From Candidatus Ornithoclostridium faecigallinarum (lineage in GTDB: Bacteria > Bacillota > Clostridia > Christensenellales > UBA3700): 64,000 nucleotides of DNA. The notes below the pieces were generated by a model. It worked only from the letters and a program-made list of their open reading frames with translations. It did no database searches and was not told where the DNA came from. The stretch spans positions 6,346 through 70,345 of the forward strand of contig DVOI01000001.1 of assembly GCA_018713665.1 (NCBI GenBank). Reading direction: 5' to 3'. The translations under genes were made by a program, and so were the position numbers. The number at the start of each line of letters is the position of its first letter. The first letter of the stretch is position 1. Below, one piece after another: positions 220-33,904 of this stretch.

Positions 220-1044
220 ATGAAAAAGACATCTATCGTTATCGTAGCAACCCTGCTTATCGTCGCCAGCCTCGCTCTCTGTCTGTCAGGCTGCGGCGGC
301 ACCTCCGGCAAAACTCCCGACGAGATCAAAGAGGCGGGCGTTCTGATCATCGCGACCAACGCGGAGTTCGAACCTTTCGAATACACCGCCGAAGACGGCT
401 CGTACATCGGCTGGGATATGGACATCGCCAGGGCGTTCGCCGATCTGCTCGGCGTCAAGATCGACATCAGACATATGCAGTTCGACTCCGTCCTCGCCGC
501 AGTGGCGTCCGGCACCGCCGACATCGGTATGGCGGGCATCTCTTACAGCGAGAAGCGCGACGAGACCGTCGACTTTTCCAAAGGAGTGTTCAACAGCTCG
601 CAGATGATCATCGTCAAGAGCGACAACACCGACATTCAGGACGCTTTCGACCTCGAAGGCAAGATCGTCGGCGCTCAGCGCGGTACGGTCGGAGCCGATC
701 TTGCAGAGCTCGATCCCGACTGGGCTTCGGACGGCGAAGGCGGCTTCATCCTCGGCAGACCTGCCTCGGTTGACAAGCAAGAAAGCGGCTTCTTGGCGGT
801 TCAGAATCTCATACAGGGCAAGTCCGACGCGGTCATCCTCGACAAGATGCCCGCCGAAGCGATCGTCGCAAAAATGGGCGGCGCAGTCAAGATCCTCGAA
901 AAGTCCGTCTTCGACGACGAGTACGCTTTCGCCGTCGCCGAGGGCAACGCCGAATTGCAGGCGTGGATCAACGAAGCGATCGACACTCTCAAAGCTAACG
1001 GCACCTGGGACAAGATCACCGAAAAATACTTCGGCGAAGCATAA
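220..1044 (+). CDS. polar amino acid ABC transporter substrate-binding lipoprotein
   Basis: 274 aa; signal peptide with lipobox (LCLSGCGG); resembles GlnH/ArtJ-type family-3 binders (IIATNAEFEPFEY, GWDMDIARAFA); first gene of binder-permease-ATPase operon. Confidence 0.9.
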   Translation: MKKTSIVIVATLLIVASLALCLSGCGGTSGKTPDEIKEAGVLIIATNAEFEPFEYTAEDGSYIGWDMDIARAFADLLGVKIDIRHMQFDSVLAAVASGTADIGMAGISYSEKRDETVDFSKGVFNSSQMIIVKSDNTDIQDAFDLEGKIVGAQRGTVGADLAELDPDWASDGEGGFILGRPASVDKQESGFLAVQNLIQGKSDAVILDKMPAEAIVAKMGGAVKILEKSVFDDEYAFAVAEGNAELQAWINEAIDTLKANGTWDKITEKYFGEA

Positions 1045-1075
1045 CTCCGTCCCCTACTCATCGATCAAAACATAC

Positions 1076-1107
1076 GAGACAAGCCGGAGGTCTCTCCGGC
1101 TTGTCTC
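1076..1107 (+). other. intercistronic perfect stem-loop between binding-protein and permease genes
   Basis: GAGACAAGCCGGAG-gtct-CTCCGGCTTGTCTC, 14-bp stem, no T-run; classic position for differential mRNA stability in ABC importer operons. Confidence 0.6.
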
Positions 1108-1121
1108 GGCATTGAGGGAAT

Positions 1122-1817
1122 ATGCAATTCGACTTTTCCATCATCTTCAACAAAAACGCGCTCGCGACATTGGGCGAAGCGTACGGCTGGACGCTGTTCA
1201 TCGCCGTCGGCGCATTGCTGATCGGCGTTGTGCTGGGCACGCTGCTCGCAATCTGTAAAGTCATCCCCAAGACAAACATCGTCGCAAAGATCCTGGACAA
1301 GTTCTCGTCCGTCTATCTCGCGGTCTTCCGCGGTACGCCGCTCACCGTGCAGCTGTTCATCTTCTATTTCATAATCTTCGCCGGCGTCACCTTCTTTTCG
1401 GCGTCGCTCACTCCGTACATCATCTCGGTGGTCGGTTTCGGTCTTAATTCCGCCGCCTATGTCGCGGAGATCATCCGCTCGGGCATCCTCAGCATCGACA
1501 AAGGACAGATGGAGGCTGGACGGGCGCTCGGTCTGAGCTACGGCAAAACAATGATGTCGGTCGTACTGCCGCAGGCGGCGAAGAACATCATTCCCCCGCT
1601 CGGCAACGAGGCGATCACACTGGTCAAAGACACGTCTATCGCGCTGGTCATCGGCGTATCCGAGTTCTTCACCGCAATCAGAGGCATCGTCAACAGGACG
1701 TACAACGTCATCACTCCGTACATCTTCGCGGCGGTCGTCTACTTCGTAACCGTGCTGATCATGACGCTGTGCCTCAACAAACTCGAAAAACGTCTTAGGA
1801 GGAGCGACGCAAGATGA
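1122..1817 (+). CDS. polar amino acid ABC transporter permease (HisM/GlnP family)
   Basis: 231 aa, multi-TM; EAA-loop-like region [27 protein letters not shown]; GAGGGAA RBS; ATGA overlap with downstream ATPase. Confidence 0.9.
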
Positions 1818-3106
1818 GCGAAAAGATCATTCAACAAAACCCCGTCCTCATCTCCACCCGCGGTCTGACCAAGCGCTTCGGGAGCAAGGACGTGCTCAAA
1901 GGCATAGACTGCGACATCCGCGTCGGCGAAAAGGTCGCGGTCATCGGTCCTTCGGGCAGCGGCAAGAGCACATTCCTGCGCTGCCTCAACCTGCTCGAAC
2001 TGCCGTCGGGCGGCGTCGTCACGGTGGACGGAGCGGTGCTCTTCCAAAGCGACATGCAAGCCAAAAAGGACGTTTTGGACGCGATCAAGGCGCAGATCAA
2101 GGCGGTGAAGTCGGGCGAAGCCTCTCCCGAGGTCAAGGCGCACCAAGAGGAAGCGGCGGCGCTCAAAGAAGAACTTTTGCACGCTCATGCCGAACTCAAA
2201 GACGCCGCGACCAAGGCAAAGCTCGCCGCGATCAAACTCGCCAAGAAGTCGGGCGGCGTCACCGAAGAAGACGTTCAAGACGCGGTCGCCGCGCGCGAAA
2301 AGGCGACGGCGGTCGTCGCCGAACTCAAAGCACGGCTCTCTGCGGTCAACGCCAAGATCAAGCAAAAGAAAGCGGAGGCGAAAAAGAACGTCGACGCGGC
2401 GGAACTGCAACGGCTCAACGAAGCCTTGACGCAAGCCAAAGCCGAATACGCAACGGCGAAAAAGGCGCACAACGCGGCAATGCGCAAGACCAACGCGGTC
2501 ATCGACGAACACCGCCGCAACATGGGCATGGTGTTCCAGCACTTCAACCTGTTCAACAACCTGACCGTGACCGAGAACATCACGCTCGCGCCCGTTTCGC
2601 TGGGGATCAAAGACCTCGCGGCAAAGCGCAAAGAGCTGCTCAAGCGCAAGCTGTTCAAGCACGAGGACGTGACCGAGCAGCTCGCCGCCCTGCCCGACAA
2701 GCTGGAGATCATCGAGAACGCCAAGACCAACGCCAAGCGACTCTTGGCGCGCGTCGGGCTGCTCGACAAGGCGGACGTCTTCCCGTCCACGCTGTCCGGC
2801 GGACAAAAGCAGCGTATCGCGATCGTCCGTTCCCTCGCGATGAATCCGCGCGTGATGCTGTTCGACGAGCCGACTTCCGCGCTCGACCCCGAGATGGTCG
2901 GCGAAGTGCTCGAAGTCATCAAGGAGCTTGCCGACGAGGGCATGACGATGGTCATCGTCACCCACGAGATGAATTTCGCAAAAGAAGTCGCGACGCGCGT
3001 GCTGTTCGTCGACGACGGACTGATCAAAGAGGACGCGCCGCCCGCCGACCTGTTCGGCAATCCTCAAAACGACAGACTCAAAGAATTCTTGTCCAAGATC
3101 CTCTGA
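1814..3106 (+). CDS. amino acid ABC transporter ATP-binding protein with large coiled-coil-like insertions
   Basis: 430 aa; Walker [11 protein letters not shown]-loop MVFQHFNLF, signature LSGGQKQR, Walker [13 protein letters not shown]-loop THEM; about 190 aa longer than typical GlnQ-type ATPases. Confidence 0.9.
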
Positions 3107-3110
3107 CGTC

Positions 3111-3133
3111 AAAAAGGACGCCGTCGGGCGTCC
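3111..3133 (-). terminator. rho-independent terminator of the DUF2779 gene
   Basis: GGACGCC-cgac-GGCGTCC followed by TTTTT on the minus strand. Confidence 0.6.
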
Positions 3134-3154
3134 GTCAAATTCAACTCAAAGGAG

Positions 3155-3185
3155 CGGCTCCGCGTTTGCGGAGCCGTGATTTTTT
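3155..3185 (+). terminator. rho-independent terminator of the amino-acid ABC operon
   Basis: CGGCTCCGC-gttt-GCGGAGCCG then gtgaTTTTTT. Confidence 0.75.
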
Positions 3186-3200
3186 GAGATATGTTTCGGT

Positions 3201-4724
3201 TTATTCCGCCTTTTTTCTGTGTCGTCTGCGGCGGTTTTTGTTCCTTTTCACCCCTATCTCCGCGCCTGTCACCGTCTGCAACAGCATCACCATGCGCGCA
3301 AGCGACAGCGTGTCCTTGCCGCAATAGGTGTAAAGCTGGGCATAGTGTTCGGCGCTCGCCGCGTCGTCCTCATACTGCGCGCGCGTAAACAGCCTGAGCG
3401 CCTCGGCGCCGTTGCGCACGTCGAGCGCGGAGTAATCGCAGCTCTTGTCCCCGGGGAACATCGCCGGATAGACCGCTTTGAGCGACGTCGAGCCGAGCAT
3501 CGCCTTGGAGTAGACCGCCCTCGACGCGAACAGCTCTTGCAGATCTCTCACGCCGCCTCGCGCAGCGGTCAGCTTGGAGCCCAAGTCCTTGTATTTGCTC
3601 GCCAGCTGATTGAGCACCTTGCACTCCAGCCCCTTCGAGAACACGACGACGCACGCGCCGTGCGGGATCTGATTGAACAATCTGCGCGCGATCTCGGGAC
3701 GCGGATCGACGCCTTTTTTCGGCAGAAACTGGAAGTGCTCCAACTCCGAATACTCGGTGCGTTTGACGTGCAGCGAATATTGGAACGGGATCTGCATGAA
3801 CGGCCGCGTGCCGTCATAGAGCGGCAGCGCAGGCTGACACGCCTCGAAGTCGAGGAAGCACATCGGATAGTGCAACTTCTCAATAAACGCGCGCACGCGC
3901 GGGATGTCGATATGGAGCTCGTCGTCGGTCAAATACATCCTGACCATCGCCGCCTGCGCGGGTTTGAGCAAATGGGCGTTGTCGAGCAGGTCGTCGAGGC
4001 TCTTGACCCCCGACTCGAACAGCTTGAACATCGTCCCGCCGTCAATGCCGTGAAAGTCGAGCATGCACGGTCTTTCGGTCGCGACGCACGACGCGAAATA
4101 TTCGCACTTGTCGGGACGCTCGCACTTGACGGACATCTCGCGCACGATCGGTTCGGCAAGCAGCCTTTCCGCCTCGCCGAGAAACGCGGCGACGACATCC
4201 TTCGCCTCTTCCGTCCTCGGCGCGACGTCGTTGATCTTGAACAGTTTTTCGGGCTCGATCGCGCCCTTGCGGACATAACTGCGGTTGCACACCGCGACGC
4301 GTATCGCCGCGAGCGGATGACCGCTCCTCTTCGCGACCTCGGCGATGTACGCCGCCTTAGCGACCGCGCTCTCGGTGATTTTTGGCGTCGTCTTGGTGTA
4401 GTACGCGCAAAGCCCTTCATCCGTCACACAGATCTCGTCGACATAGGCGCAAAACGCGCCGAAGACAAAGCCGACGTTGCGAAAATTCTTTTCGCCTGCG
4501 TCAAGTCCTCTTTCAAAAGCGGCGAAAGACTCGGCGGGGTCGTCCGACATGCAGTCGACGCCGTCCGGCAGCATCGCAAACAATTCCGCCTTGAGACGAG
4601 CATACTCCGACTTGCGATACGCCGACGCCTCGTCTTCGGCAATCGGCATCAGACGCCCCTTGACAAAGAGCGTCTTGCAGTGTCTGTATCTTGAAAAATC
4701 CGAATTGTCGAAATAGCTGTTCAT
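3201..4724 (-). CDS. DUF2779-type protein (RecB/Cas4-like nuclease-fold N-terminal half with Cys cluster)
   Basis: 507 aa; Cys cluster CERPDKCEYFASC; block FLDFEACQPALPLYDGTRPFMQIPFQYSLH matches my recollection of the DUF2779 signature. Confidence 0.6.
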   Translation of the reverse strand: MNSYFDNSDFSRYRHCKTLFVKGRLMPIAEDEASAYRKSEYARLKAELFAMLPDGVDCMSDDPAESFAAFERGLDAGEKNFRNVGFVFGAFCAYVDEICVTDEGLCAYYTKTTPKITESAVAKAAYIAEVAKRSGHPLAAIRVAVCNRSYVRKGAIEPEKLFKINDVAPRTEEAKDVVAAFLGEAERLLAEPIVREMSVKCERPDKCEYFASCVATERPCMLDFHGIDGGTMFKLFESGVKSLDDLLDNAHLLKPAQAAMVRMYLTDDELHIDIPRVRAFIEKLHYPMCFLDFEACQPALPLYDGTRPFMQIPFQYSLHVKRTEYSELEHFQFLPKKGVDPRPEIARRLFNQIPHGACVVVFSKGLECKVLNQLASKYKDLGSKLTAARGGVRDLQELFASRAVYSKAMLGSTSLKAVYPAMFPGDKSCDYSALDVRNGAEALRLFTRAQYEDDAASAEHYAQLYTYCGKDTLSLARMVMLLQTVTGAEIGVKRNKNRRRRHRKKAE

Positions 4725-5550: not shown

Positions 5551-5565
5551 GATCCACCGCCTTGT

Positions 5566-5600
5566 ACAAAAATCGGGACATGCCTTCGTCCCGTCTTTTT
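5566..5600 (-). terminator. terminator of the 71-aa orphan gene (bidirectional shape)
   Basis: CGGGAC-8 nt loop-GTCCCG flanked by A5 and T5 runs. Confidence 0.55.
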
Positions 5601-5659
5601 AATTATACAATACAAGACGGCGTCAAGTCAATCACAAAAATTGCGTTTTTCGCGTCATT

Positions 5660-5875
5660 TCAGCGCCGACGTCCGTCGACCACAACATCGTACAGCGCCT
5701 TCGAAAACGCAACTTCGAGCTTTTCGCACTCCGCCTCCAAACCGGGCACTCGACGCGCAATCGCCCTCGCTCGCGCATATCTTGCCGCCATACGATAGAG
5801 CTCATCGCAGCGCCGTCTGCCGACGGCAACGACTTCTTCCTTTTTGCTCCTGCTTGTCACACTCGATCTTTCCAT
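5660..5875 (-). CDS. small Arg-rich hypothetical protein (71 aa)
   Basis: ATG 5875 preceded by AAAGGGGAGGA RBS (5-nt spacer); own consensus promoter and terminator; MERSSVTSRSKKEEVVAVGRRRCDELYRMAARYARARAIARRV...; no family recognised. Confidence 0.6.
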   Translation of the reverse strand: MERSSVTSRSKKEEVVAVGRRRCDELYRMAARYARARAIARRVPGLEAECEKLEVAFSKALYDVVVDGRRR

Positions 5876-5903
5876 CGATGTCCTCCCCTTTGGTTCTGAT
5901 GCC

Positions 5904-5932
5904 ATTTTAGCACTCGCGCCTGTTTGGGTCAA
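5904..5932 (-). promoter_or_regulatory. SigA-type promoter of the 71-aa gene
   Basis: Minus strand TTGACC - 17 nt - TAAAAT. Confidence 0.65.
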
Positions 5933-5988
5933 TCGTTCTTTCGCGCGTATGCGCGCGCTGACAAATTTCGACAAAATATGCGTATAAT

Positions 5989-6005
5989 CGACACAGGCAC
6001 GAAAA
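5989..6005 (+). repeat. copy A of intergenic motif CG(A/C)CAC(R)GG(R)CACGAAA
   Basis: CGACACAGGCACGAAAA directly after a TATAAT hexamer (5983-5988). Confidence 0.5.
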
Positions 6006-6109
6006 TTTTGTTTGTCGACTTCTGAGCGGTCATGTCGGTTAAAAGCGTTTTTTCACCCCTTCCCTGCGCTGTCGAAAATCGATATGAAAGGACGCATCGG
6101 CGCCTTTTG

Positions 6110-6138
6110 TTGACAAGCGGACGCTCGCGCATTATAAT
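6110..6138 (+). promoter_or_regulatory. consensus SigA promoter of the GH20-nagA-esterase operon
   Basis: TTGACA (6110-6115) - 17 nt - TATAAT (6133-6138); GGAGG RBS before ATG 6164. Confidence 0.8.
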
Positions 6139-6163
6139 ATACTAAAAAAGCGGAGGTCGGCAG

Positions 6164-7732
6164 ATGTCAAACGTCATCCCCAAAGTCAACGACGAACAGC
6201 TTTACGGCGGAGATATCAACTTCGACGGCGGAGTCAGATTGTGCGCCTGTCCCGAGGCGGAGGGCGTCGCCGCCAATCTCAAATCCATGTTTTTGCGCAT
6301 ATGTCCGTCGGTTGTCTTTTCCGACGGCGGCACCGTGATTGTGAAATTTGAAAAGGACGCGCTGCTGCCCCACGAAGGTTATGTCGTCGACGCGAGCGGA
6401 GACTCAATCCGCCTGATTGCCGCCGGCGCCCCCGGCTGGACGTACGCGCTTGTCACCATGCTTCACCTCCTCAATGCAAAAGAAGGCGCAAAAGCGATTG
6501 ACGTGTCGCTGCCATGCTGCCGGATTGCGGACTCTCCGCGTTTCAAGTACAGAGGGCTGATGTTGGACGAGGCGCGCAACTTTTTCGGCGAGACCGAAGT
6601 GAAGCGACTGTTGGACTTGATGTGTCTGTTCAAACTCAACGTGTTGCATTGGCATCTCGCAGACGATCAAGGCTATCGATTGGAGAGCGACGTATTTCCG
6701 TTGCTCACGTCCGTCTCCACTCGTCGCAACGACACGCAGGTCGGCGGCGTAAAGTCGAGCAAATTCATGGGCGTGGAATCCTCGGGACACTACACCAAAA
6801 ATCAAATTCGCAACATCGTCGAATACGCGGCGGAGCGCAACATCGTCATCGTCCCCGAGCTGGAGATGCCGTCGCACTGCAGCGCGATTCTAGCCGCCTA
6901 CCCCAAGCTGAGCTGCACCGGCGAAAAGACCGAAGTGCCGACCACGTTCGGCACAAAACGCCGCTCTTTCTGCCCCGGCAAACCGACGACCTACGATTTT
7001 TTGGACAAGCTGCTCGACGAGTGGTGCGAACTGTTCCCGTCCAAGCTCTTCCATATCGGCGCAGACGAGACCGGTTCTTCACTTTGGAAAGACTGCCCCG
7101 ACTGCCGCAGGACTATCTCCGAAAACGGGCTTGCGGGCGCGCATGAGCTGTTGCCGCTGTTCGTCAACCGCATTGCCGACATGCTTGCCGCCAAGGGCAA
7201 GCTGCCGATGATTTGGTCGGACAAATTGCTGCGCGGAGTGCGCAACTACGTCTCTTACGAGGCATGGCTGCCTCTCGACAAAAAGGCTGTCGCCGCCGAG
7301 ATCTCTTCGGGACGCAAATTCGTCGTCGCGCCGTACGACCGCTATTACGCCTGCCTCCCCTATTGCATGATTCCCCTCAAAAAGACATATGACTTTGAGC
7401 CGACTTCAATCGCCTCGGGGGCGAGCGACGCAGGCATCTTCGGCGTGGAGATGCCCATGTGGACAGAGTGGGTATACGACCGCATAAAGCTGGATTTCAA
7501 CCTGTTCCCGCGGCTGTGCGCGCTCGCAGAGACGGGCTGGACGGTCGCGTCGCGCAAGAGTTTTTCGGATTTCAAAAAGCGCTGGAACTCCCTCAAACCG
7601 CTGCTCGACATGTTCGAGGTGGACTACGCCAAGGACAAGCTGACCGCGCCCGGTGCATTCACCCGCAACAAGGGTACATATATTTGGAAAAACATCGACC
7701 AATACGACGAAGTGAGGAAAAACAAACTATGA
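6164..7732 (+). CDS. beta-N-acetylhexosaminidase, glycoside hydrolase family 20
   Basis: 522 aa; GH20 motifs HWHLADDQGYRLE and HIGADE (catalytic D-E); no signal peptide. Confidence 0.9.
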   Translation: MSNVIPKVNDEQLYGGDINFDGGVRLCACPEAEGVAANLKSMFLRICPSVVFSDGGTVIVKFEKDALLPHEGYVVDASGDSIRLIAAGAPGWTYALVTMLHLLNAKEGAKAIDVSLPCCRIADSPRFKYRGLMLDEARNFFGETEVKRLLDLMCLFKLNVLHWHLADDQGYRLESDVFPLLTSVSTRRNDTQVGGVKSSKFMGVESSGHYTKNQIRNIVEYAAERNIVIVPELEMPSHCSAILAAYPKLSCTGEKTEVPTTFGTKRRSFCPGKPTTYDFLDKLLDEWCELFPSKLFHIGADETGSSLWKDCPDCRRTISENGLAGAHELLPLFVNRIADMLAAKGKLPMIWSDKLLRGVRNYVSYEAWLPLDKKAVAAEISSGRKFVVAPYDRYYACLPYCMIPLKKTYDFEPTSIASGASDAGIFGVEMPMWTEWVYDRIKLDFNLFPRLCALAETGWTVASRKSFSDFKKRWNSLKPLLDMFEVDYAKDKLTAPGAFTRNKGTYIWKNIDQYDEVRKNKL

Positions 7733-8907
7733 CCTTGACCTATTCCAACGTCCGCCCTCTCGTCGGCGGCAAACTCAAAGACGTCTGCGACATCGTCGTC
7801 AATGACGGCAAAATCATCTCAATCGGCTCCGTCCGCGAAGGCGAAGTCATCGACTGCGGCGGCAAGATATGCGCCGCCGGGTTCATCGACATCCACACGC
7901 ACGGCGGCTGGGGCCACGACTGTATGGAGGCGACCGAAGAATGTCTGGCGACGATTTCGGCGTATCACCTCTACACCGGCATAACCTCGTACTGCCCGAC
8001 GACGATGACCGCGACTCCCGAAGACATCGAAAAGGCGGTCGACGCGATTCGCTCCTACAAGCGCAAGTCTCCGTATGCACGCATCGTCGGCGCCCACCTC
8101 GAGGGGCCGTATCTGTCCCAAAAGGCGGCGGGAGCGCATCCTCCCAAGCTGTTGATTTCCCCTCTTGACGACGACAGTTTCGTCGAGGGCAATCTCGACA
8201 TCGTCACTCGCGTGACCGTCGCGCCAAACGTCAAAGGCGCCGACATATTCACCGCAAAATATGCGCCCAAAGGCGTGCAGATTTCGCTCGGACACGACAA
8301 CTCGATCGACGACGAGATCTATGCCTGCGTAAACGCCGGCGCGAACAGCGTCACCCATATGTACAACTGCACGTCGCGCCCCTCGCGCCGCGACAACCCC
8401 AAAAAGCACCTCGGCTTGACCGAAGTCGGCTTGATTGACGACAGAATCGTCGATGAAGTAATCGCCGACGATCGGCACGTCCCCGACAAGCTGTTCGGGA
8501 TGATTTTCAAGCTCAAGGGCGCACACGGCATTTGCCTCGTCTCCGACTCGCTGAGCGTCGCAGGCATGCCCGAGGGAGACTACTACATCGGCGCAGGCGA
8601 CAGCAAGCAGTCGATACGCGTCGAGGACGGCGTTGCGGTTCTCCCTGCGGAAAACACCTACGCCGGCTCCGTCACTCCGATATCGGTCATGGCGAAACGA
8701 TTGATTGCAAACGGCTACTCAATCGCGGACGCGCTGTCGATGGCGACGCTCGTCCCGGCAAAGCTGGTCGGCTTGGCGGACAGAGGCGACCTCGCCCCCG
8801 GCATGCTTGCGGATTTCAACATCTTCGACGACGACTTTTCAATCCGCACGACCGTGCTCGGCGGCAACATTGTCGACAGGGACGCGCTGATTGCAAAAAG
8901 AGGTTAA
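7729..8907 (+). CDS. nagA: N-acetylglucosamine-6-phosphate deacetylase
   Basis: 392 aa from ATG 7729 (ATGA overlap with GH20 stop); FIDIHTHGGWGHD metal motif; longer track ORF start 7459 rejected. Confidence 0.9.
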   Translation: MTLTYSNVRPLVGGKLKDVCDIVVNDGKIISIGSVREGEVIDCGGKICAAGFIDIHTHGGWGHDCMEATEECLATISAYHLYTGITSYCPTTMTATPEDIEKAVDAIRSYKRKSPYARIVGAHLEGPYLSQKAAGAHPPKLLISPLDDDSFVEGNLDIVTRVTVAPNVKGADIFTAKYAPKGVQISLGHDNSIDDEIYACVNAGANSVTHMYNCTSRPSRRDNPKKHLGLTEVGLIDDRIVDEVIADDRHVPDKLFGMIFKLKGAHGICLVSDSLSVAGMPEGDYYIGAGDSKQSIRVEDGVAVLPAENTYAGSVTPISVMAKRLIANGYSIADALSMATLVPAKLVGLADRGDLAPGMLADFNIFDDDFSIRTTVLGGNIVDRDALIAKRG

Positions 8908-27684: not shown

Positions 27685-29106
27685 CTATTTTTGCATTGAC
27701 CCGAAGTACTTGTCGACCAGCTCTTTGCCGCCCGTCTCGGCGACTACTCCGCAGTCGATGAGCGCAGCCTTGTCGCACAGCGCGGCAGCGCACCGAAAGT
27801 CGTGCGTTACGGTAATCATCGTATTGCCCGTCTGCTCGTGCAGCGCGTTGAGAGTCTCGGCCATTTTGCACAGTCCTTCATAATCCTGCCCCACGGTCGG
27901 CTCGTCCAACAGCAGCACGTCGGGTTCGCACGCGACGACCGCCGCAATCGATACTCTTCTCTTTTGTCCCTCGGAAAGGGACTGCGGATGGCGCCGCCAA
28001 AGGTGCTCTATCCCGAACAGCTCGGCGACGTGCTCGGCATATTCGGACGACTTTGCGCCAAACTTCAGCTCCTGCTCGACCGTCGGCATGAAGAGTTGAT
28101 AGTCCGGATTTTGATAGACCACGCCGACCCTGTTGAACCATGCGCGGCTGCCGCGAGGTCTTTGCTTGAACTTGTCGTCGAGGTGTTGAATTATACTCCC
28201 TCCGGTCGGCTTGTACAATCTTGCGATGAGGCGCATCAACGTAGTCTTGCCGCAGCCGTTTTCGCCTAGCAAAATCGTTCTGCCGCCCTTGGGGATTTCG
28301 AGCGTGACGCCCTTCAAGATCTCCCTGTCCTTGACGGAAAACTTGACGTCTTTGAGGTCGAACAGCGCATCTCCGCCCTCAAATGCCGGACAGCCGTCTT
28401 CTATCTTTGCCGTGCGCCCAACGAGGTATTGCCGCTCGTCCTGCGCCTTTTTGACCTTTCCTTTGCCGATATACCACACCGTATCGACAAAAGGCAGCAC
28501 CATGTCGATACGATGTTCTATGACGACAATCGCATAGCCGGCACGTGCGAGCGAACGCAGCGTTCCCATCAGCATAGCCGCGCCGTCCTTGTCGAGATTG
28601 GCGAGAGGCTCGTCCAAGATGATTATCTTCTGCCCCATCGCAAGCGTCGACGCGGTGATCAATCGCTGTTTTTGTCCGCCGGACAGAGTGCGGCATCTCG
28701 CGCCTTTATCCAGCTTCATCAACCGGCAGACAATCTCAATCTGCCGATCGATCATGGCGGAAGGATAGGCGAGATTTTCGCAGCCGAACGCGATTTCGTC
28801 CTCGACGAATTTTTGAACAATCTGTTCGTCGGCATTCTGCAACACCACGCCCACCTTGCGGCAGATGTAGCCGAGTTTTTTGCCCTTGATGTCCTCGCCG
28901 GCAATCTTCACTTCTCCCGACAATTCGCCGTAATTTACGTTGGGAATGATGCCGCTGACGATGTACATCAACGTGCTCTTGCCCTCGCCGGAATGCCCGG
29001 ACAGGAGGGTCACTTCTCCGTATTCGGCGACAAAGTCGACGCCTTCGAGAATCTTTGTCTTCCCGTCGTACGAAAAGTCTACGCCTTTCAATTCTATCGC
29101 GTTCAT
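27685..29106 (-). CDS. ecfA: fused tandem ECF-type ABC ATPase (EcfA-EcfA')
   Basis: 473 aa from ATG 29106 (ATGA overlap); two Walker A sites (GHSGEGKST, GENGCGKTT) and two signatures ([16 protein letters not shown]). Confidence 0.85.
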   Translation of the reverse strand: MNAIELKGVDFSYDGKTKILEGVDFVAEYGEVTLLSGHSGEGKSTLMYIVSGIIPNVNYGELSGEVKIAGEDIKGKKLGYICRKVGVVLQNADEQIVQKFVEDEIAFGCENLAYPSAMIDRQIEIVCRLMKLDKGARCRTLSGGQKQRLITASTLAMGQKIIILDEPLANLDKDGAAMLMGTLRSLARAGYAIVVIEHRIDMVLPFVDTVWYIGKGKVKKAQDERQYLVGRTAKIEDGCPAFEGGDALFDLKDVKFSVKDREILKGVTLEIPKGGRTILLGENGCGKTTLMRLIARLYKPTGGSIIQHLDDKFKQRPRGSRAWFNRVGVVYQNPDYQLFMPTVEQELKFGAKSSEYAEHVAELFGIEHLWRRHPQSLSEGQKRRVSIAAVVACEPDVLLLDEPTVGQDYEGLCKMAETLNALHEQTGNTMITVTHDFRCAAALCDKAALIDCGVVAETGGKELVDKYFGSMQK

Positions 29107-29780
29107 AGTGCCACCGTAAGCACCGCGCCGACGACTATACCGACGATGAACAGCACGTCCGAAAGCGCGGGGTATTCCTTTTTGTAGATTGAATAGAGTG
29201 CGCCGCCCAAAGTGAAACCGCGCGTCTCGACGGAGAGCGCGAGCGTGTCCGAGATGTTGACAAGCCTCATTACGAACGGCACGAGAAATGCTCGATAAAA
29301 GATTTTCGGGGCAAATATGCTCCCTGCGCCGCGCGTCTTCATCGCCTCTCTGACGCGCCCTATCTCTCCCTTGAGCATTGGCACGAATGACATTGATATG
29401 AGCATGCCCAGCGTAATCGCTCTCGGCATACGCGCCTGCGAGAGAGCGCGCGTCATACGGACCGCCTCGACGGACATCGAGAGCGCGACCCCCAAAAAGA
29501 GCGCGCCGAAACGGTTGAGCATCGAGATTGCAGCCAGGGCGTCTCCGCCTGCCGACGCATATGCTATGCCGGCGAACGCGCCGCCGAATACGACGAACGC
29601 CGGAATCATCTTCAAGCACCCTTTCAGACACCCGAACAGACAGACCCAAACGAGCACGCCGAGCAGATAGTAGCTCATGTTTTCCTCACGCGCCGCGACA
29701 AGACCGAAGACAATCACGAACAGCGACGCCGCGACGGCGACAAGAGGATAGAGCCTCGCCCTGAGTTTGAAAAACGTCAT
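29103..29780 (-). CDS. ecfT: ECF transporter transmembrane T component (CbiQ/EcfT family)
   Basis: 225 aa from ATG 29780 (ATGA overlap both sides); multi-TM; position between S-like and A components. Confidence 0.75.
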   Translation of the reverse strand: MTFFKLRARLYPLVAVAASLFVIVFGLVAAREENMSYYLLGVLVWVCLFGCLKGCLKMIPAFVVFGGAFAGIAYASAGGDALAAISMLNRFGALFLGVALSMSVEAVRMTRALSQARMPRAITLGMLISMSFVPMLKGEIGRVREAMKTRGAGSIFAPKIFYRAFLVPFVMRLVNISDTLALSVETRGFTLGGALYSIYKKEYPALSDVLFIVGIVVGAVLTVAL

Positions 29781-30493
29781 TTTTTGAGCACCCCCGCCTT
29801 TTTGAGTTCGCGCGAAACGACCATGCCTATCACCGAGCCGACAAAGCACAGCGCGGTGATTGCAAGCGTCATCAGCGCGATGACCCACGGCTCTGTCGCG
29901 CCGAGGAACATCGAGACCGCCTCGTTTTCCGCGCCCGTCACCGTATAGTTGACATTGTAATAGAGATACAACAGCGGCACGGTGAGCGGCATATACAGCG
30001 TGCCGGCAAGCACGCACGCCCAATCGCTCTTGTAGCTTCGGAAGATTGCCAAGACAATCAGCTCATCGACGATTGCACATACGGCAATCAACGCCATCGG
30101 CGGAAACATCATCAACAGGAAGAGCGCCATAAAGACACCCATAATCGTCATGGCGCCCGCCTTGCGCACTTTCATCAGCCCTATGACCGGAAAGACGGAA
30201 AATTGAAGCCCCAGCCCCAACTGAATGATTCCGAACACCGGGACGTGTATCAAAAGCGGCATGATTGCGCTCGTCACGAGCGTGCACGCCATTATGATGG
30301 CAATGAAAACAATGTCTTTGATTTTGAAGTGACGGAACGCCCTGCTCTCGTCCCTCTCTTTCGCCTCGCGCTTTTTCTGCTTTTCCTCGAAAGCCGTCCT
30401 CTCGGCGGCGACCGCCTCTTGCATGCGCGCCGAGTTTTCAATCAAGGCGGCGATATCGTCGCTCCTATCGTCGAACGTCTTTTCGCCCGTCAT
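29777..30493 (-). CDS. MptD / Trep_Strep family putative ECF S component with 57-aa charged N-terminal extension
   Basis: 238 aa; about 180-aa strongly hydrophobic core ending in a basic tail (SRELKKAGVLKK), as I recall for the Trep_Strep/MptD family; ATGA overlap with upstream ABC gene. Confidence 0.65.
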   Translation of the reverse strand: MTGEKTFDDRSDDIAALIENSARMQEAVAAERTAFEEKQKKREAKERDESRAFRHFKIKDIVFIAIIMACTLVTSAIMPLLIHVPVFGIIQLGLGLQFSVFPVIGLMKVRKAGAMTIMGVFMALFLLMMFPPMALIAVCAIVDELIVLAIFRSYKSDWACVLAGTLYMPLTVPLLYLYYNVNYTVTGAENEAVSMFLGATEPWVIALMTLAITALCFVGSVIGMVVSRELKKAGVLKK

Positions 30494-32178
30494 CTCTCCA
30501 CCTCCTCTATCACTCCGTCCTTGATGCGATATACGCGGTCGGCGATTGCCATCGTCGATTCGCGGTGAGACACCAAGATGATGCTCTTTTCCCTGCGGCT
30601 GTCCTTGAGCGCCTTGAGAATGATGCCCTCGTTGATGCTGTCGACGTTGCTTGTCGGCTCGTCGAGCAATATCAATTTGCCGTCATGCAGGAATGCCCTC
30701 GCAAGTCCTATCCTCTGCTTTTCGCCTGCGGATAAGTCGTCGCCGAGAGCGCCGACCTGTGTGTCGTAACCGTTAGGAAGCTTCATGATGAACTCGTCGA
30801 CGGACGCCTTTCGGCAAGCCTGTCTCATCTCGTCCATTGTAGCGTCCGCCTTGGCTATGCGAAGGTTGTCGGCGACGCTTTGGTCGAAGAGATAGGTACT
30901 CTGACTGACCATGGTCACGTTGTCCGTCAACGCCGCGCTGTCAATCTCGTCGATGTCGACGCCGTTGTATTCGATGCTGCCCGAATCCTTCTCCCAAAAG
31001 CGCAGCAGCAATTTGAGCAACGTGGATTTGCCGCAGCCGCTCGCGCCGACTATGCCGACGATCTCGCCCTTTTCGGCGTGCATGCATACGTCTTTGAGCA
31101 CTCTTTCGTTGGCGTCGTATCCGAACGAAAGGTCGATTGTCTCGACGCGTTCGAAGTCGAGCGGTTTGCCGTCTTCAACCGGCTCGACGGCGGGTTTTTC
31201 GGCAAGCAATTTGAGCACGCGGTCGCCCGACGCAAACGTCTGCGTAAGGTTGCCCGGAAGCGCCGATATCGCAATTACGGGGCCGAACGAACCGAACACC
31301 GCAACCACCCCGACAATCATCATGCCCACGCTCAATCTGTCGGTTACGACCATGATGACGCCCACCGCCAAAGTGAGGATTACGAACACGGATACGAAAA
31401 TTTCGGTCAAACCCGCCGCTGTCGAAATCTTACGCTTGAGTTTTTTCGTATAGTCCAAAAGCGAGTCGCTGCGCCTGTCCACTTCGGCAAGCCGCGCGTT
31501 CTCGGCATTGTTGAGAACGATGTCTTTGACGCCCTTTATACTGTCCAAGAAGTAGGCGTTGAACGATGAGAATTCCGCCCTGTAGCCCACGCCGCCCGAG
31601 CGGAGCAGTTTGGACGTAATCATGGGCAATACGATGCCTATCGCGAGATAGCCGCACATCGCGACGAGCGCCAAGTACCAGCTCGACACGCATCCGACAA
31701 ACGCGAACACCGCGCTCGACACGACGACCGCAATGCAGATGGGCGAAATCGTATGCGCATAGAACACTTCGAGCGTCTCGATGTCCGAGGTGATCATTGC
31801 GATGATTGCGCCCTTTTGCTTGCTTTCCAACTTGGCGGGACAGAGCACGCGCAGCGCGCCGAATATCTTGTCGCGCAACACCGCGAGCAAGCGAAACGCG
31901 ATGTAGTGATTGCTGTATTGCTCGGCATAGCGCAACGCCCCTCGCAGCACGCCGAACCCGACCGCAAGGCCCATAATCCAGCCGTACGACAGGGCGATGT
32001 TTTCCCCGAGCGCCTTGGCGACGCCGACCGCGCCCATCAACGTAACGCCCATTGCGCTGATAAACCCGAGACTGCCGTTAATAACGGCGATTACCATTAT
32101 ATAAGCGAGCGATCCGAGCAAGACAATCAGTCTCGCCATAATCTTGCCGCCGTTCATTCTCGTATTCTTTTCAGTCAT
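30490..32178 (-). CDS. ABC exporter permease/ATPase fusion, CydC-like half-transporter
   Basis: 562 aa from ATG 32178 (8-nt overlap with upstream gene); 6-TM domain plus NBD (GASGCGKST, LSAGEKQR, LLDEPTS). Confidence 0.8.
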   Translation of the reverse strand: MTEKNTRMNGGKIMARLIVLLGSLAYIMVIAVINGSLGFISAMGVTLMGAVGVAKALGENIALSYGWIMGLAVGFGVLRGALRYAEQYSNHYIAFRLLAVLRDKIFGALRVLCPAKLESKQKGAIIAMITSDIETLEVFYAHTISPICIAVVVSSAVFAFVGCVSSWYLALVAMCGYLAIGIVLPMITSKLLRSGGVGYRAEFSSFNAYFLDSIKGVKDIVLNNAENARLAEVDRRSDSLLDYTKKLKRKISTAAGLTEIFVSVFVILTLAVGVIMVVTDRLSVGMMIVGVVAVFGSFGPVIAISALPGNLTQTFASGDRVLKLLAEKPAVEPVEDGKPLDFERVETIDLSFGYDANERVLKDVCMHAEKGEIVGIVGASGCGKSTLLKLLLRFWEKDSGSIEYNGVDIDEIDSAALTDNVTMVSQSTYLFDQSVADNLRIAKADATMDEMRQACRKASVDEFIMKLPNGYDTQVGALGDDLSAGEKQRIGLARAFLHDGKLILLDEPTSNVDSINEGIILKALKDSRREKSIILVSHRESTMAIADRVYRIKDGVIEEVER

Positions 32179-33904
32179 TGTCGTCCTCCCCGTCGAGATA
32201 TCCCTCTTCGAGCGCCTTTTGCGCGTTGAACAGCCGCGCGTATTCTCCGCCCTTTGCGATGAGCTCGTCATGCGTGCCGCTCTCTTTGACTTCGCCGTCG
32301 CTCATGAAATAAATGTTGTCCGCGGGAACCACGTTGGCGAGCCTGTGCGAGATGACGATGACGTTCTTTGCCTTTGAAAGTTTGCGTATGTTGTCCATGA
32401 TGATGGCTTCGCTGTCGCCGTCGATGTTGGACGTCGCCTCGTCAAACGCATATATCTCCTTGTCGGCAACGAGCGCGACCGCCAACGCAAGCCGCTGCTT
32501 TTGTCCACCCGAAATGTTGCCGCCGTCCTCTGCAATCACCTTGTCGAGTCCGCCGCCCGACTTCACGAACTCGGCGAGCCGCACCTGCTCGAGCGCCGCA
32601 TATATCTCTTCGTCCGACACCTCGGGACGGGCGAGTTTGAAATTGTCGCGCACGCTCTCGTTGAATATGTAGGAATTATACGAGACAATCGCAAGGTGAG
32701 AATACCAGCCGGCACGCGAGATTTCGCTCAGCTTTTTGCCTCCTGCGAGCACCTCTCCTTCGCTCGGTCTGTATGCGCCGCTCAACAGATTGACGACTGT
32801 CGACTTGCCGCAGCCGCTCTCTCCGACGATTGCGGTCATCCCCACGCGCGGAAAGCTCATCGTCACGTCTTTGAGCACGTCGCGTTTGCCGTCGTACGAA
32901 AAGGTGACGCCGCGAAGCTGCGCGGTCGTATCGTCGATGTCTCCGTCGCCCCATTCGGGCTCTTTGGCTTGAAGAATCTCCAGGATTTTGCGCCCTGCGC
33001 TCGCGCCGTTCATCGCGACGTGGAACGCGCTGCCCAGCGACCTTAGCGGCAGAAAGAATTCCACCGCAATCAACACGAGGAAGAGCGCTTTGATCGGATC
33101 GGCGCCGTTCATCACTCCGCTTACCGCAAGCGCTATGCCTGCGCCGGCGCCGCCGTAGGCGACGAGATCCATGATCGTCGTGCTGGCAAGCTGCATGACC
33201 AACACCTTCATCGTAATCTTGCGGAAGTCCTCTGCGGAAGCGTTGATCTGTTCGTGCTTGCGCGCGTCCGCCTTGAAAATTTTGAGCTCTTTCAGCCCCT
33301 GCACGCTGTCCAAAAACACGTCGCCCATCGATGTGTACTTGCCCCAATACTTTGCAAAAATGCGCTTGGCGTACTTGGACACCGCGACTATCGAAATCGG
33401 AATCAGCGGCACGCAGACAATCAGCATCACCGCCGTCCGCCAATCAATCGGAGCGCATATCGCGAACAATATGAACGGCGCAATCATCGAATAGAAAAAT
33501 TGCGGCAGATAGGTCGAATAGTAGAGGTCGAGCTGCTCGATGCCCTCGACGCCGACCTGGGTCATGCCTGCCATCGTCGCGCTGTCGGACGAGCGCACGC
33601 CGAGCCTCAGCATCTTGTCGTACGCGCGGTGGCGCAAATCCTTTTTGACGTGCGCCCCAAGCGCGTTTTTGAACTCATTCGTCGCCTTCGTAATGCAAAA
33701 TCTCAACGCTATGCACAGCGCCGCGATGAGCGCAGGCGCAACATACGACGACGCCGCCGCGCCGTCCGCCGCAAGCCCTATCGCGTAACATATGCACGCG
33801 GTGACTGCGGTGTTGGCAAACAGGCCGAATATCATCGCGATTACCGAATAGGCGATATATTTGCGGTTGCCTCCCAACAGCGAGAGCAGCTCCTTGTCAA
33901 TCAT
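32171..33904 (-). CDS. ABC exporter permease/ATPase fusion, CydD-like half-transporter
   Basis: 577 aa; 6-TM domain plus NBD (GESGCGKST, ISGGQKQR, AFDEATS); 8-nt overlap with ygbA-like gene. Confidence 0.8.
   Translation of the reverse strand: MIDKELLSLLGGNRKYIAYSVIAMIFGLFANTAVTACICYAIGLAADGAAASSYVAPALIAALCIALRFCITKATNEFKNALGAHVKKDLRHRAYDKMLRLGVRSSDSATMAGMTQVGVEGIEQLDLYYSTYLPQFFYSMIAPFILFAICAPIDWRTAVMLIVCVPLIPISIVAVSKYAKRIFAKYWGKYTSMGDVFLDSVQGLKELKIFKADARKHEQINASAEDFRKITMKVLVMQLASTTIMDLVAYGGAGAGIALAVSGVMNGADPIKALFLVLIAVEFFLPLRSLGSAFHVAMNGASAGRKILEILQAKEPEWGDGDIDDTTAQLRGVTFSYDGKRDVLKDVTMSFPRVGMTAIVGESGCGKSTVVNLLSGAYRPSEGEVLAGGKKLSEISRAGWYSHLAIVSYNSYIFNESVRDNFKLARPEVSDEEIYAALEQVRLAEFVKSGGGLDKVIAEDGGNISGGQKQRLALAVALVADKEIYAFDEATSNIDGDSEAIIMDNIRKLSKAKNVIVISHRLANVVPADNIYFMSDGEVKESGTHDELIAKGGEYARLFNAQKALEEGYLDGEDDND

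Follow-up and report, generated by a model that had tools for sequence, protein, structure and literature searches.

The ATPase subunits of polar amino acid (PAAT-type) ATP-binding cassette (ABC) importers, such as ArtP, GlnQ, TcyN and HisP (TC 3.A.1.3), are compact proteins of 240-262 residues. In MalK, MetN, ModC, CysA, OpuA and OpuC, an extra module is attached to the importer ATPase, and modules of this type are C-terminal, consist of beta-rich or CBS domains, and have known ligands or partners. ABC importer ATPases rank with the most thoroughly studied molecular machines. To our knowledge, their accessory modules described so far are C-terminal, and a long basic coiled-coil hairpin arising from the antiparallel-beta subdomain has not been described. 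Here, we analysed a stretch of 64,000 nucleotides from Candidatus Ornithoclostridium faecigallinarum (GenBank assembly GCA_018713665.1, contig DVOI01000001.1, positions 6,346 to 70,345 of the forward strand), which is called the window below and in whose coordinates all positions are given. One of its genes (1814..3106, + strand) encodes a 430-residue ATPase that resembles ArtP, GlnQ, TcyN and HisP in core sequence, fold, motifs, C-terminus, and an operon with a family-3 solute-binding protein (SBP) and a BPD_transp_1 permease. It differs from them in its length, and in having a 147-residue segment ahead of the Q-loop, which is predicted with high confidence to form an elongated, kinked antiparallel coiled-coil hairpin protruding from the ATPase (the arm), together with a 32-residue extension of the helical subdomain. 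As the best explanation overall, with a probability of roughly 0.55, we propose that this PAAT importer ATPase uses the arm as a docking or regulatory appendage.

The ATPase core and its two insertions

In phmmer searches, the nearest relatives of the ATPase in the PDB were ArtP (3c41/2olj), an ArtN-type ATPase of Thermoanaerobacter (T. tengcongensis) and HisP, with E values from 1e-73 to 7e-63. The fold of the core agreed with that of ArtP at a TM-score of 0.93 (normalised to ArtP), Foldseek gave 0.90-0.93 for PAAT ATPases (target-normalised), and neither insert was covered by any Foldseek match to a solved structure. The A-loop (F22), Walker A (G45-T53), Q-loop (G238-Q242), signature (L327-Q331), Walker B and D-loop (L349-D358) and H-loop (H384) occur in canonical order, align with those of ArtP, and are invariant in 66 homologues. 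On the + strand of the window, Walker A (GPSGSGKST, residues 45-53; invariant in both homologue alignments) lies at 1946..1972, the invariant Q-loop (GMVFQ, residues 238-242), which is also a recombination breakpoint region, at 2525..2539, and the invariant span from the signature LSGGQ (residues 327-331) to the Walker B residues LFDE (residues 349-352) at 2792..2869. The C-terminus is canonical as well, with residue 429 aligning to residue 241 of the 242 in ArtP, and there is no C-terminal regulatory or dimerisation domain. Because the motifs, the relatives by PDB search and fold, and the accompanying family-3 SBP and HisM/GlnP-type permease all agree, the gene is assigned as the ATPase subunit of a PAAT-type importer with a canonical catalytic core; the compact size of the family (240-262 residues) is not shared. 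All NCBIfam equivalog models scored under their cut-offs (TcyN 269.6 bits vs 406, GlnQ 266.3 vs 379, with EhuA also among the best), and therefore a substrate cannot be named. An earlier sequence-only reading of this DNA had described an intact importer ATPase with all canonical motifs and two in-frame insertions, its gene overlapping that of the permease by ATGA. The uninterrupted open reading frame (ORF), the alignment with ArtP and the overlap at 1814-1817 bear this out, and the size of about 240-260 residues that it gave for GlnQ/HisP-type subunits fits the canonical relatives of about 240 residues.

The limits of both inserts were taken from the gaps in the phmmer alignment with ArtP (query residues 13-81, 229-262 and 301-429 against ArtP residues 4-72, 73-106 and 113-241). 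Insert 1 comprises the 147 residues from 82 to 228 (2057..2497, +), has no counterpart in ArtP, and is located at a surface site of the antiparallel-beta subdomain, flanked on one side by the post-Walker A beta-hairpin and on the other by the short helix that precedes the Q-loop strand, a position that we call site 1. HisP has only about 11-16 extra residues there. In the 86 canonical relatives, the distance between Walker A and the Q-loop is 35-39 residues and that between the Q-loop and the signature 50-54, and the 430-residue query is expanded in both intervals. The sequence-only reading had placed insert 1 at residues 78-232 (nt 2045-2509), which gives the correct location with slightly too wide limits. 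Its description of the segment as heptad-like and rich in Ala, Lys and Glu holds: insert 1 contains 27% Ala, 17% Lys and 10% Glu with a net charge of +8, and in its four helices the hydrophobicity, averaged over the family, repeats every 3.40-3.55 residues in a heptad-like manner, with one a/d stripe per helix.

Structure prediction also agrees with a coiled coil that protrudes as an arm, as had been suspected from the letters. AlphaFold2, supplied with a 66-sequence alignment, modelled the ATPase with a predicted local distance difference test score (pLDDT) of 91.5 and a predicted TM-score of 0.79. Insert 1 was modelled as four helices (residues 81-100, 105-143, 151-191 and 195-236) with pLDDT above 90, the fourth of which continues into the native pre-Q-loop helix, and identical helices were obtained when insert 1 was folded by itself (pLDDT 93.8). 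When the isolated insert was searched with Foldseek, the top matches were all long antiparallel hairpins (SH3BP5, PspA/Vipp1, the colicin R-domain, EmrA and SipB), none of them significant (E at least 0.04, TM at most 0.53). From the helix lengths, the predicted hairpin is estimated to extend outward over about 63-65 residues (roughly 9-10 nm). Folding of insert 1 into a compact three- or four-helix bundle was also considered and is less likely than a hairpin, judging from how long the helices are, how they are connected and what Foldseek matched. The tip of the predicted hairpin is the seven-residue loop KKSGGVT (residues 144-150; 2243..2263, +), which has no conserved motif and is the site of length variation, since some lineages have 10-23 additional low-complexity residues right there (157-170 residues in insert 1 instead of 147).

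Searches for a described relative of the inserts gave little. In Pfam, the isolated insert 1 showed only a sub-threshold match to DUF7701 (E 6e-4, 20.3 bits vs 27) and insert 2 none. A PDB profile search with insert 1 returned nothing beyond generic helical folds, either bundles or hairpins (among them de novo three-helix bundles, MacA and YaxB; E at least 2.6e-4). In the literature, we found no coiled-coil insertion in importer ATPases and nothing relevant on ABC transporters of Christensenellaceae. Across Pfam, NCBIfam, the PDB and the literature, no described subfamily matched either insert. As a check for internal duplication, helices 2 and 3 of the arm were aligned with hhalign, giving a probability of 31% (P 5e-4). 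At the DNA level, a 13-nt exact repeat (GTCGGGCGGCGTC) is present at 2005-2017 and 2248-2260, and an 11-nt exact repeat (GAAGTCGGGCG) at 2107-2117 and 2245-2255. Through them, two short peptides recur in the tip loop 'KKSGGVT', namely 'SGGV' from the beta-hairpin and 'KSG' from the loop between helices 1 and 2. The repeats may have arisen by chance under biased codon usage or may be a trace of insert growth.

Insert 2 (residues 263-300; 2600..2713, +) lies in the variable portion of the helical subdomain between the Q-loop and the signature, where it has 38 residues compared with 6 in ArtP, that is, about 32 extra. The alignment with ArtP agrees with the coordinates read earlier from the sequence (nt 2603-2713, about 35 residues before the signature). 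Around it, AlphaFold2 modelled a helix at 252-281, a short helix at 287-291 and a helix at 296-313, so that the insertion consists of a longer first helix of the helical subdomain (252-281) and a longer N-terminus of the next one (296-313). The sequence-only reading had treated the two inserts as one feature, which is not sustained. Nearly all of the closest relatives of 265-360 residues, about 70 proteins, have insert 2 without insert 1, and insert 2 is missing from the ATPases of loci L014 and L015, which have shorter hairpins at site 1. By this distribution, inserts 1 and 2 are independent characters.

Coiled coils on ABC-type ATPases are best known from other protein families. In SMC and Rad50 proteins, the head is split by the coiled coil into a half with Walker A and the Q-loop and a half with the signature and Walker B; this coiled coil extends for 15-50 nm and has a hinge or zinc hook at its apex. 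SMC, Rad50 and RecN have an antiparallel coiled coil that emerges from an ABC-type ATPase head (PMC5526789), and the query likewise has a predicted antiparallel coiled coil on such a head. However, the long insert of the query lies between Walker A and the Q-loop, with only the 32-residue insert 2 between the Q-loop and the signature; its apex would be a seven-residue loop that is variable in sequence and length and has no Cys motif, its arm would measure about 9-10 nm, and the query is part of a transporter. The SMC/Rad50 analogy proposed in the sequence-only reading therefore fails on the insertion site, on the apex without hinge or hook, and on the permease partner. The Pfam model SMC_N (PF02463) matched the ATPase with 31.9 bits (cut-off 40), over generic ABC core residues 204-393 only. 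In ABC-F proteins, the Arm is part of the helical subdomain of ABC1, closer to the position of insert 2 than to site 1. The coiled-coil protrusions of ABC-F proteins are Lys/Arg-rich, poorly conserved and variable in length (PMC6723617), and the arm of the query is similarly basic, heptad-like, poorly conserved and of variable length, a resemblance that is insufficient for membership in the group of EttA, Uup and VgaA. By their architecture, ABC-F arms and linkers are the closest analogue of the query arm. ABC-F proteins differ in that they are soluble, bind the ribosome, and have two tandem ABC domains with a PtIM/linker, whereas the query has one ABC domain and a permease. No sequence similarity of the insert to ABC-F arms was detected in profile, Pfam or PDB searches. 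With the MalK- and MetN-type ATPases, the query shares an extra module outside the catalytic core of an importer ATPase, and a functional analogy is proposed on this ground. In contrast to theirs, its module is internal, by prediction all-helical, and without a recognisable ligand site, and MetN and OpuCA match the query through the core only.

Distribution, graded hairpin lengths and cassette exchange

The long form of the ATPase was seen repeatedly. In identical form, the query protein is present on 19 contigs, and it falls in a 90% cluster of 242 members. An uninterrupted copy with 97.7% identity is present on the complete HiFi chromosome of an uncultured Christensenellaceae bacterium (L001), and intact orthologues with 72-77% identity were found in three more species known from metagenome-assembled genomes (MAGs), belonging to Ca. 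Ornithoclostridium, Ca. Caccalectryoclostridium and another Christensenellaceae. A genome scan with the insert alignment of close subgroup 1 gave a count of four GTDB species, which covers subgroup 1 only. When 5.8 billion clusters were searched, about 42 of them (421-447 residues, 51-95% identical) represented the long form, and the next proteins down had 265-360 residues. When 1.84 billion representatives were searched with a profile of insert 1, the matches were members of the family or fragments of them, apart from a few weak ones to generic coiled-coil proteins. By these searches, the hairpin is lineage-specific, restricted to Christensenellaceae-like gut MAGs. No tandem or flanking repeats were found at the insert boundaries, the G+C content is even across the region, and no intein (Hint/endonuclease) or transposase domains were found with Pfam. 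In the NCBI annotation of a Ca. Ornithoclostridium MAG, the orthologue (HIU96869.1) is called as the C-terminal 208 residues only, starting from M224 (window 2483-3106, residues 224-430). This call leaves out Walker A and the arm, and thus the long form misleads model-guided gene calling.

The reading frame of both inserts is constrained. In deep pairs, the ratio of nonsynonymous to synonymous substitution rates (dN/dS) was 0.19-0.37 for insert 1, 0.18-0.54 for insert 2 and 0.06-0.16 for the core, which points to relaxed but clearly purifying selection on both inserts. A dN/dS of 1.5 for the insert between the window and L001 was discarded because it came from very few substitutions within a recent recombination tract. 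Four positions of insert 1 are invariant (L88, G101, V107 and H219) and D194 is almost so, and one large subgroup keeps insert 1 at exactly 144 residues. Insert 1 carries a net charge of +7 to +17 in every one of the 40 long forms, compared with 0 to -6 for the core. From the intact frame and this selection, we infer that the ATPase is made as a single polypeptide.

When 240 ATPases were compared, their architectures fell into discrete states, with 86 canonical, 72 having insert 2 only, 15 having a short hairpin at site 1 without insert 2, and 42 having the long hairpin together with insert 2. The 15 short hairpins are of at least three sequence-distinct kinds. Two ATPases found through their permease, those of L014 (301 residues) and L015/P0334 (393 residues), have helical insertions of about 58 and 75 residues exactly at site 1, with entry and exit motifs similar to those of the query, and P0316-P0325 are further short-hairpin ATPases of uncultured Clostridia. 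These proteins have their insertion at the site used in the query and resemble it in the entry and exit motifs, and their permeases are 61-64% identical to its permease; they differ in that their hairpins have 58-75 residues and insert 2 is absent. Taken together, the lengths at site 1 form a series of 0, 58, 75, 144-147 and 157-170 residues, by which site 1 is a permissive hot spot and the query arm the long end of a series. The sequence-only reading would have been refuted if the extra residues were common to an already described subfamily; neither insert corresponds to one, but insert 1 is not singular. Separately, P0375, P0402 and P0428 (295-297 residues) have an insertion of 59-61 residues at site 1 with an unrelated sequence ('TDPYLH...'), which suggests independent insertions at the same hot spot. 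A third type of appendage was also seen, since many relatives have low-complexity N-terminal extensions of 25-100 residues before the ABC domain. These are either acidic and Ala/Glu-rich or Lys-rich ('KFAKTEKTPVEPYDP'), and examples are P0058, P0062 and P0065 (352-359 residues), P0075-P0119 (300-332 residues) and L015:3668-3890.

The hairpin is inherited together with its transporter genes. The SBPs of long-form loci are 49-68% identical to each other and 33-38% identical to the SBP of a hairpin-less short-form cassette, and the query permease is 65-81% identical to those of all long-form loci, 61-64% to those of short-hairpin loci and 41-47% to those of hairpin-less cassettes. By sequence, the long-form SBPs and permeases form a clade of their own with which the hairpin travels, and the short-hairpin loci are its sister clade. 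Exchange of these cassettes can be followed at one syntenic site, occupied by L008 (long, 427 residues) and by L009 and L010 (short, 290 residues), with flanks that are 93-95% identical. Between L008:3455-5950 and L009:3273-5540, there is no DNA similarity from the first codons of the SBP to about residue 320 of the ATPase, and identity returns to 97-100% just 5' of the signature motif, which places the breakpoint at about residues 320-325. Each allele is backed by many contigs, and the comparison shows replacement of the SBP, the permease and residues 1 to about 320 of the ATPase by an unrelated PAAT cassette. The window itself also appears to have taken part in exchange. It is generally 78-88% identical to the HiFi chromosome L001, and 94-100% identical over about 2.8 kb (window ~1600-4400, L001 ~5560-8360), a tract that spans the 3' end of the permease gene, the entire ATPase gene and most of a DUF2779 gene, and that looks like recent homologous recombination between two lineages. 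Evidently, homologous recombination takes place within the conserved 3' half of the ATPase gene, and by it specificity cassettes are swapped between lineages, the arm-bearing 5' part included.

Some short proteins required separate treatment. Locus L005 (P0020) matches the window at 98.8% identity from nt 2510 (Q-loop) onward, has a foreign permease and ATPase N-terminus, and is known from a single contig; it may be a recombinant or an assembly chimera. In P0020 as in P0027, P0046 and P0047 (276-280 residues), the C-terminal half shows 76-97% identity to long-form lineages, whereas the N-terminal part is from other lineages, and P0027 and P0047 have an identical N-terminal part with differing C-terminal halves. 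An indel polymorphism, as could be read from short proteins 97% identical to the query, was rejected because each of these four is one sequence on one contig that switches lineage at the Q-loop. They are chimeric assemblies or one-off or rare recombinants.

Candidate role of the arm and competing explanations

With one permease gene and one ATPase gene, the transporter would be homodimeric and would display two arms. The insertion point lies outside Walker A, the signature, the Q-, D- and H-loops and the coupling-helix groove, and the arm would accordingly not be part of ATP hydrolysis. Most likely, it would be a peripheral appendage whose positive surface binds an anionic partner, such as an acidic protein, the inner surface of the membrane or nucleic acid. 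Binding of the partner would couple the activity, localisation or assembly of the transporter to that partner, in a role akin to that of the C-terminal regulatory domains of importer ATPases. An interaction surface is favoured because the positive charge is conserved and selection is purifying. Several results weigh against this account. Insert 1 evolves about four times faster than the core, with a mean column identity of 0.51 vs 0.83-0.90, and its tip accepts indels of 10-23 residues; such drift and indels are a pattern that a weakly constrained passenger would give too. Beyond the three-gene operon, no conserved neighbour stands out across the examined loci as a partner gene. In hhalign, short and long hairpins aligned with a probability of only 9% (P 0.0035) and in register only at the exit helix, where homology between them is plausible from the sequences.

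The main rival is a tolerated passenger without a specific function, that is, a surface helix that was elongated stepwise and near-neutrally at a permissive site and has merely been kept soluble and folded. The graded lengths at site 1, the three or more sequence-distinct kinds of short hairpin, the fast drift of sequence with an Ala share that ranges from 9 to 28% across the long forms, and the missing partner gene are all as this explanation would have it. However, dN/dS is far under 1 in every deep pair, four positions are invariant, a large subgroup holds the length of exactly 144 residues, the net charge stays positive in every long form while the composition drifts, and the arm has been kept across lineages that are only 51-56% identical, so that we regard a passenger as possible but doubtful. 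It is distinctly unlikely that the arm acts as a tether between subunits, by which two arms would pair with each other or with those of neighbouring transporters, keep the nucleotide-binding domains together or cluster the transporters, and stand in for the C-terminal dimerisation domains of MalK and MetN. Coiled coils often oligomerise, the ATPase has no such C-terminal domain, and the Ala-rich helices of the query could pack tightly, but the sole a/d stripe of each helix is already used inside the hairpin, no second apolar face is conserved, Ala-richness is not conserved either, and two arms of net +7 to +17 would repel each other.

Moonlighting of the SMC/Rad50 or ABC-F kind, with the arm binding DNA, RNA or the ribosome, is very improbable. 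A Lys-rich coiled-coil protrusion on an ABC domain with a composition like that of ABC-F arms and linkers, and weak sub-threshold Pfam matches to SMC_N and AAA_15, would fit it; against it, the protein has a single ABC domain, its gene overlaps that of the permease in an importer operon at every examined locus, the pre-Q-loop site is unlike those of both SMC/Rad50 and the ABC-F arm, the tip has no hinge or hook motif, and the SMC_N match is under the cut-off. An origin as an artefact (a chimeric assembly, or a gene that is frameshifted or fused) or as a selfish element (an intein or another mobile element in frame) is effectively refuted. Although the truncated NCBI call from M224 and the several single-contig short proteins that switch lineage at the Q-loop could raise this suspicion, the ORF is uninterrupted in the window, on the HiFi chromosome, in the three other MAG species and in hundreds of cluster members, the singletons are the odd short forms and not the long form, and a reading frame under selection without intein or transposase domains, repeats or a G+C discontinuity is not what such an origin would leave. 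A more far-reaching form of the docking proposal can also be put forward, in which the arm is an evolvable coiled-coil module that couples the importer to a regulator, a membrane domain, nucleic acid or the ribosome, and the series of 0, 58, 75, 147 and 170 residues records how a coiled coil arose de novo from a surface helix, grew in steps and was passed between lineages by cassette recombination. Such a module would constitute a class of regulatory or scaffolding appendage not recognised before on ABC importers. This wider scheme is speculative and, taken as a whole, rather unlikely.

If the arm does bind a partner, it would be a new way in which nutrient uptake is regulated or localised by Christensenellaceae-like gut bacteria, which have been linked to host health and are almost wholly uncultured. 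The hairpin family would also provide a clean natural series for studying how a coiled coil originates and elongates at a permissive site of a conserved enzyme, and the locus illustrates the swapping of transporter cassettes by recombination within a conserved ATPase gene. For annotation, the orthologue that the NCBI pipeline cut to its C-terminal 208 residues serves as a warning. We expect that the finding would somewhat surprise specialists in ABC transporters; it opens no major question alone, and can be regarded as a curiosity rather than a new kind of system.

Operon and neighbouring genes

The first gene of the operon (220..1044, +) encodes the family-3 SBP, with 274 residues and a lipoprotein-like N-terminus (Pfam SBP_bac_3, E 1.8e-37), whose nearest solved relatives are the GlnPQ substrate-binding domain, AncQR and ArtI-type binders, that is, binders of glutamine and basic amino acids. 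In the intergenic region that follows, a terminator-like pattern scan found a stem-loop with a perfect 15-bp palindrome (1075..1108), which may be an intra-operon attenuator or an mRNA stabiliser setting the ratio of SBP to permease. The permease (1122..1817, +; 231 residues; BPD_transp_1, Pfam E 3.6e-23) is the single transmembrane-domain gene, and its top NCBIfam models are cystine and glutamine permeases, both under cut-off. Its stop codon overlaps the start of the GlnQ/ArtP/TcyN-like ATPase gene, an AGGAGG lies 10 nt 5' of the ATPase ATG, and translation of the ATPase would be coupled to that of the permease via the ATGA overlap. A hairpin with a T-run 3' of the ATPase stop codon (3154..3177, +), found by the pattern scan only, is a terminator-like candidate for the operon end. 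The arrangement of SBP, permease and ATPase is also kept in loci L002, L004, L006, L008 and L011-L013. Searches with Rfam at gathering thresholds in the window and four loci gave no match, and hence no riboswitch or T-box hint at the substrate.

On the 3' side of the operon, a convergent gene at 3201-4724 (-) encodes a DUF2779 protein of 507 residues. The convergent DUF2779 gene is retained in L001, L004, L005, L006/L007 and L011-L013, and not in L002 or L008, and represents conserved synteny, not an operon partner. Elsewhere in the window, at 27700-32600 (-), four weak ABC-ATPase matches with 30-36% identity to the C-terminal core of the query are located in large minus-strand ORFs; none of the four has the arm, and they are probably exporter-type ABC proteins.

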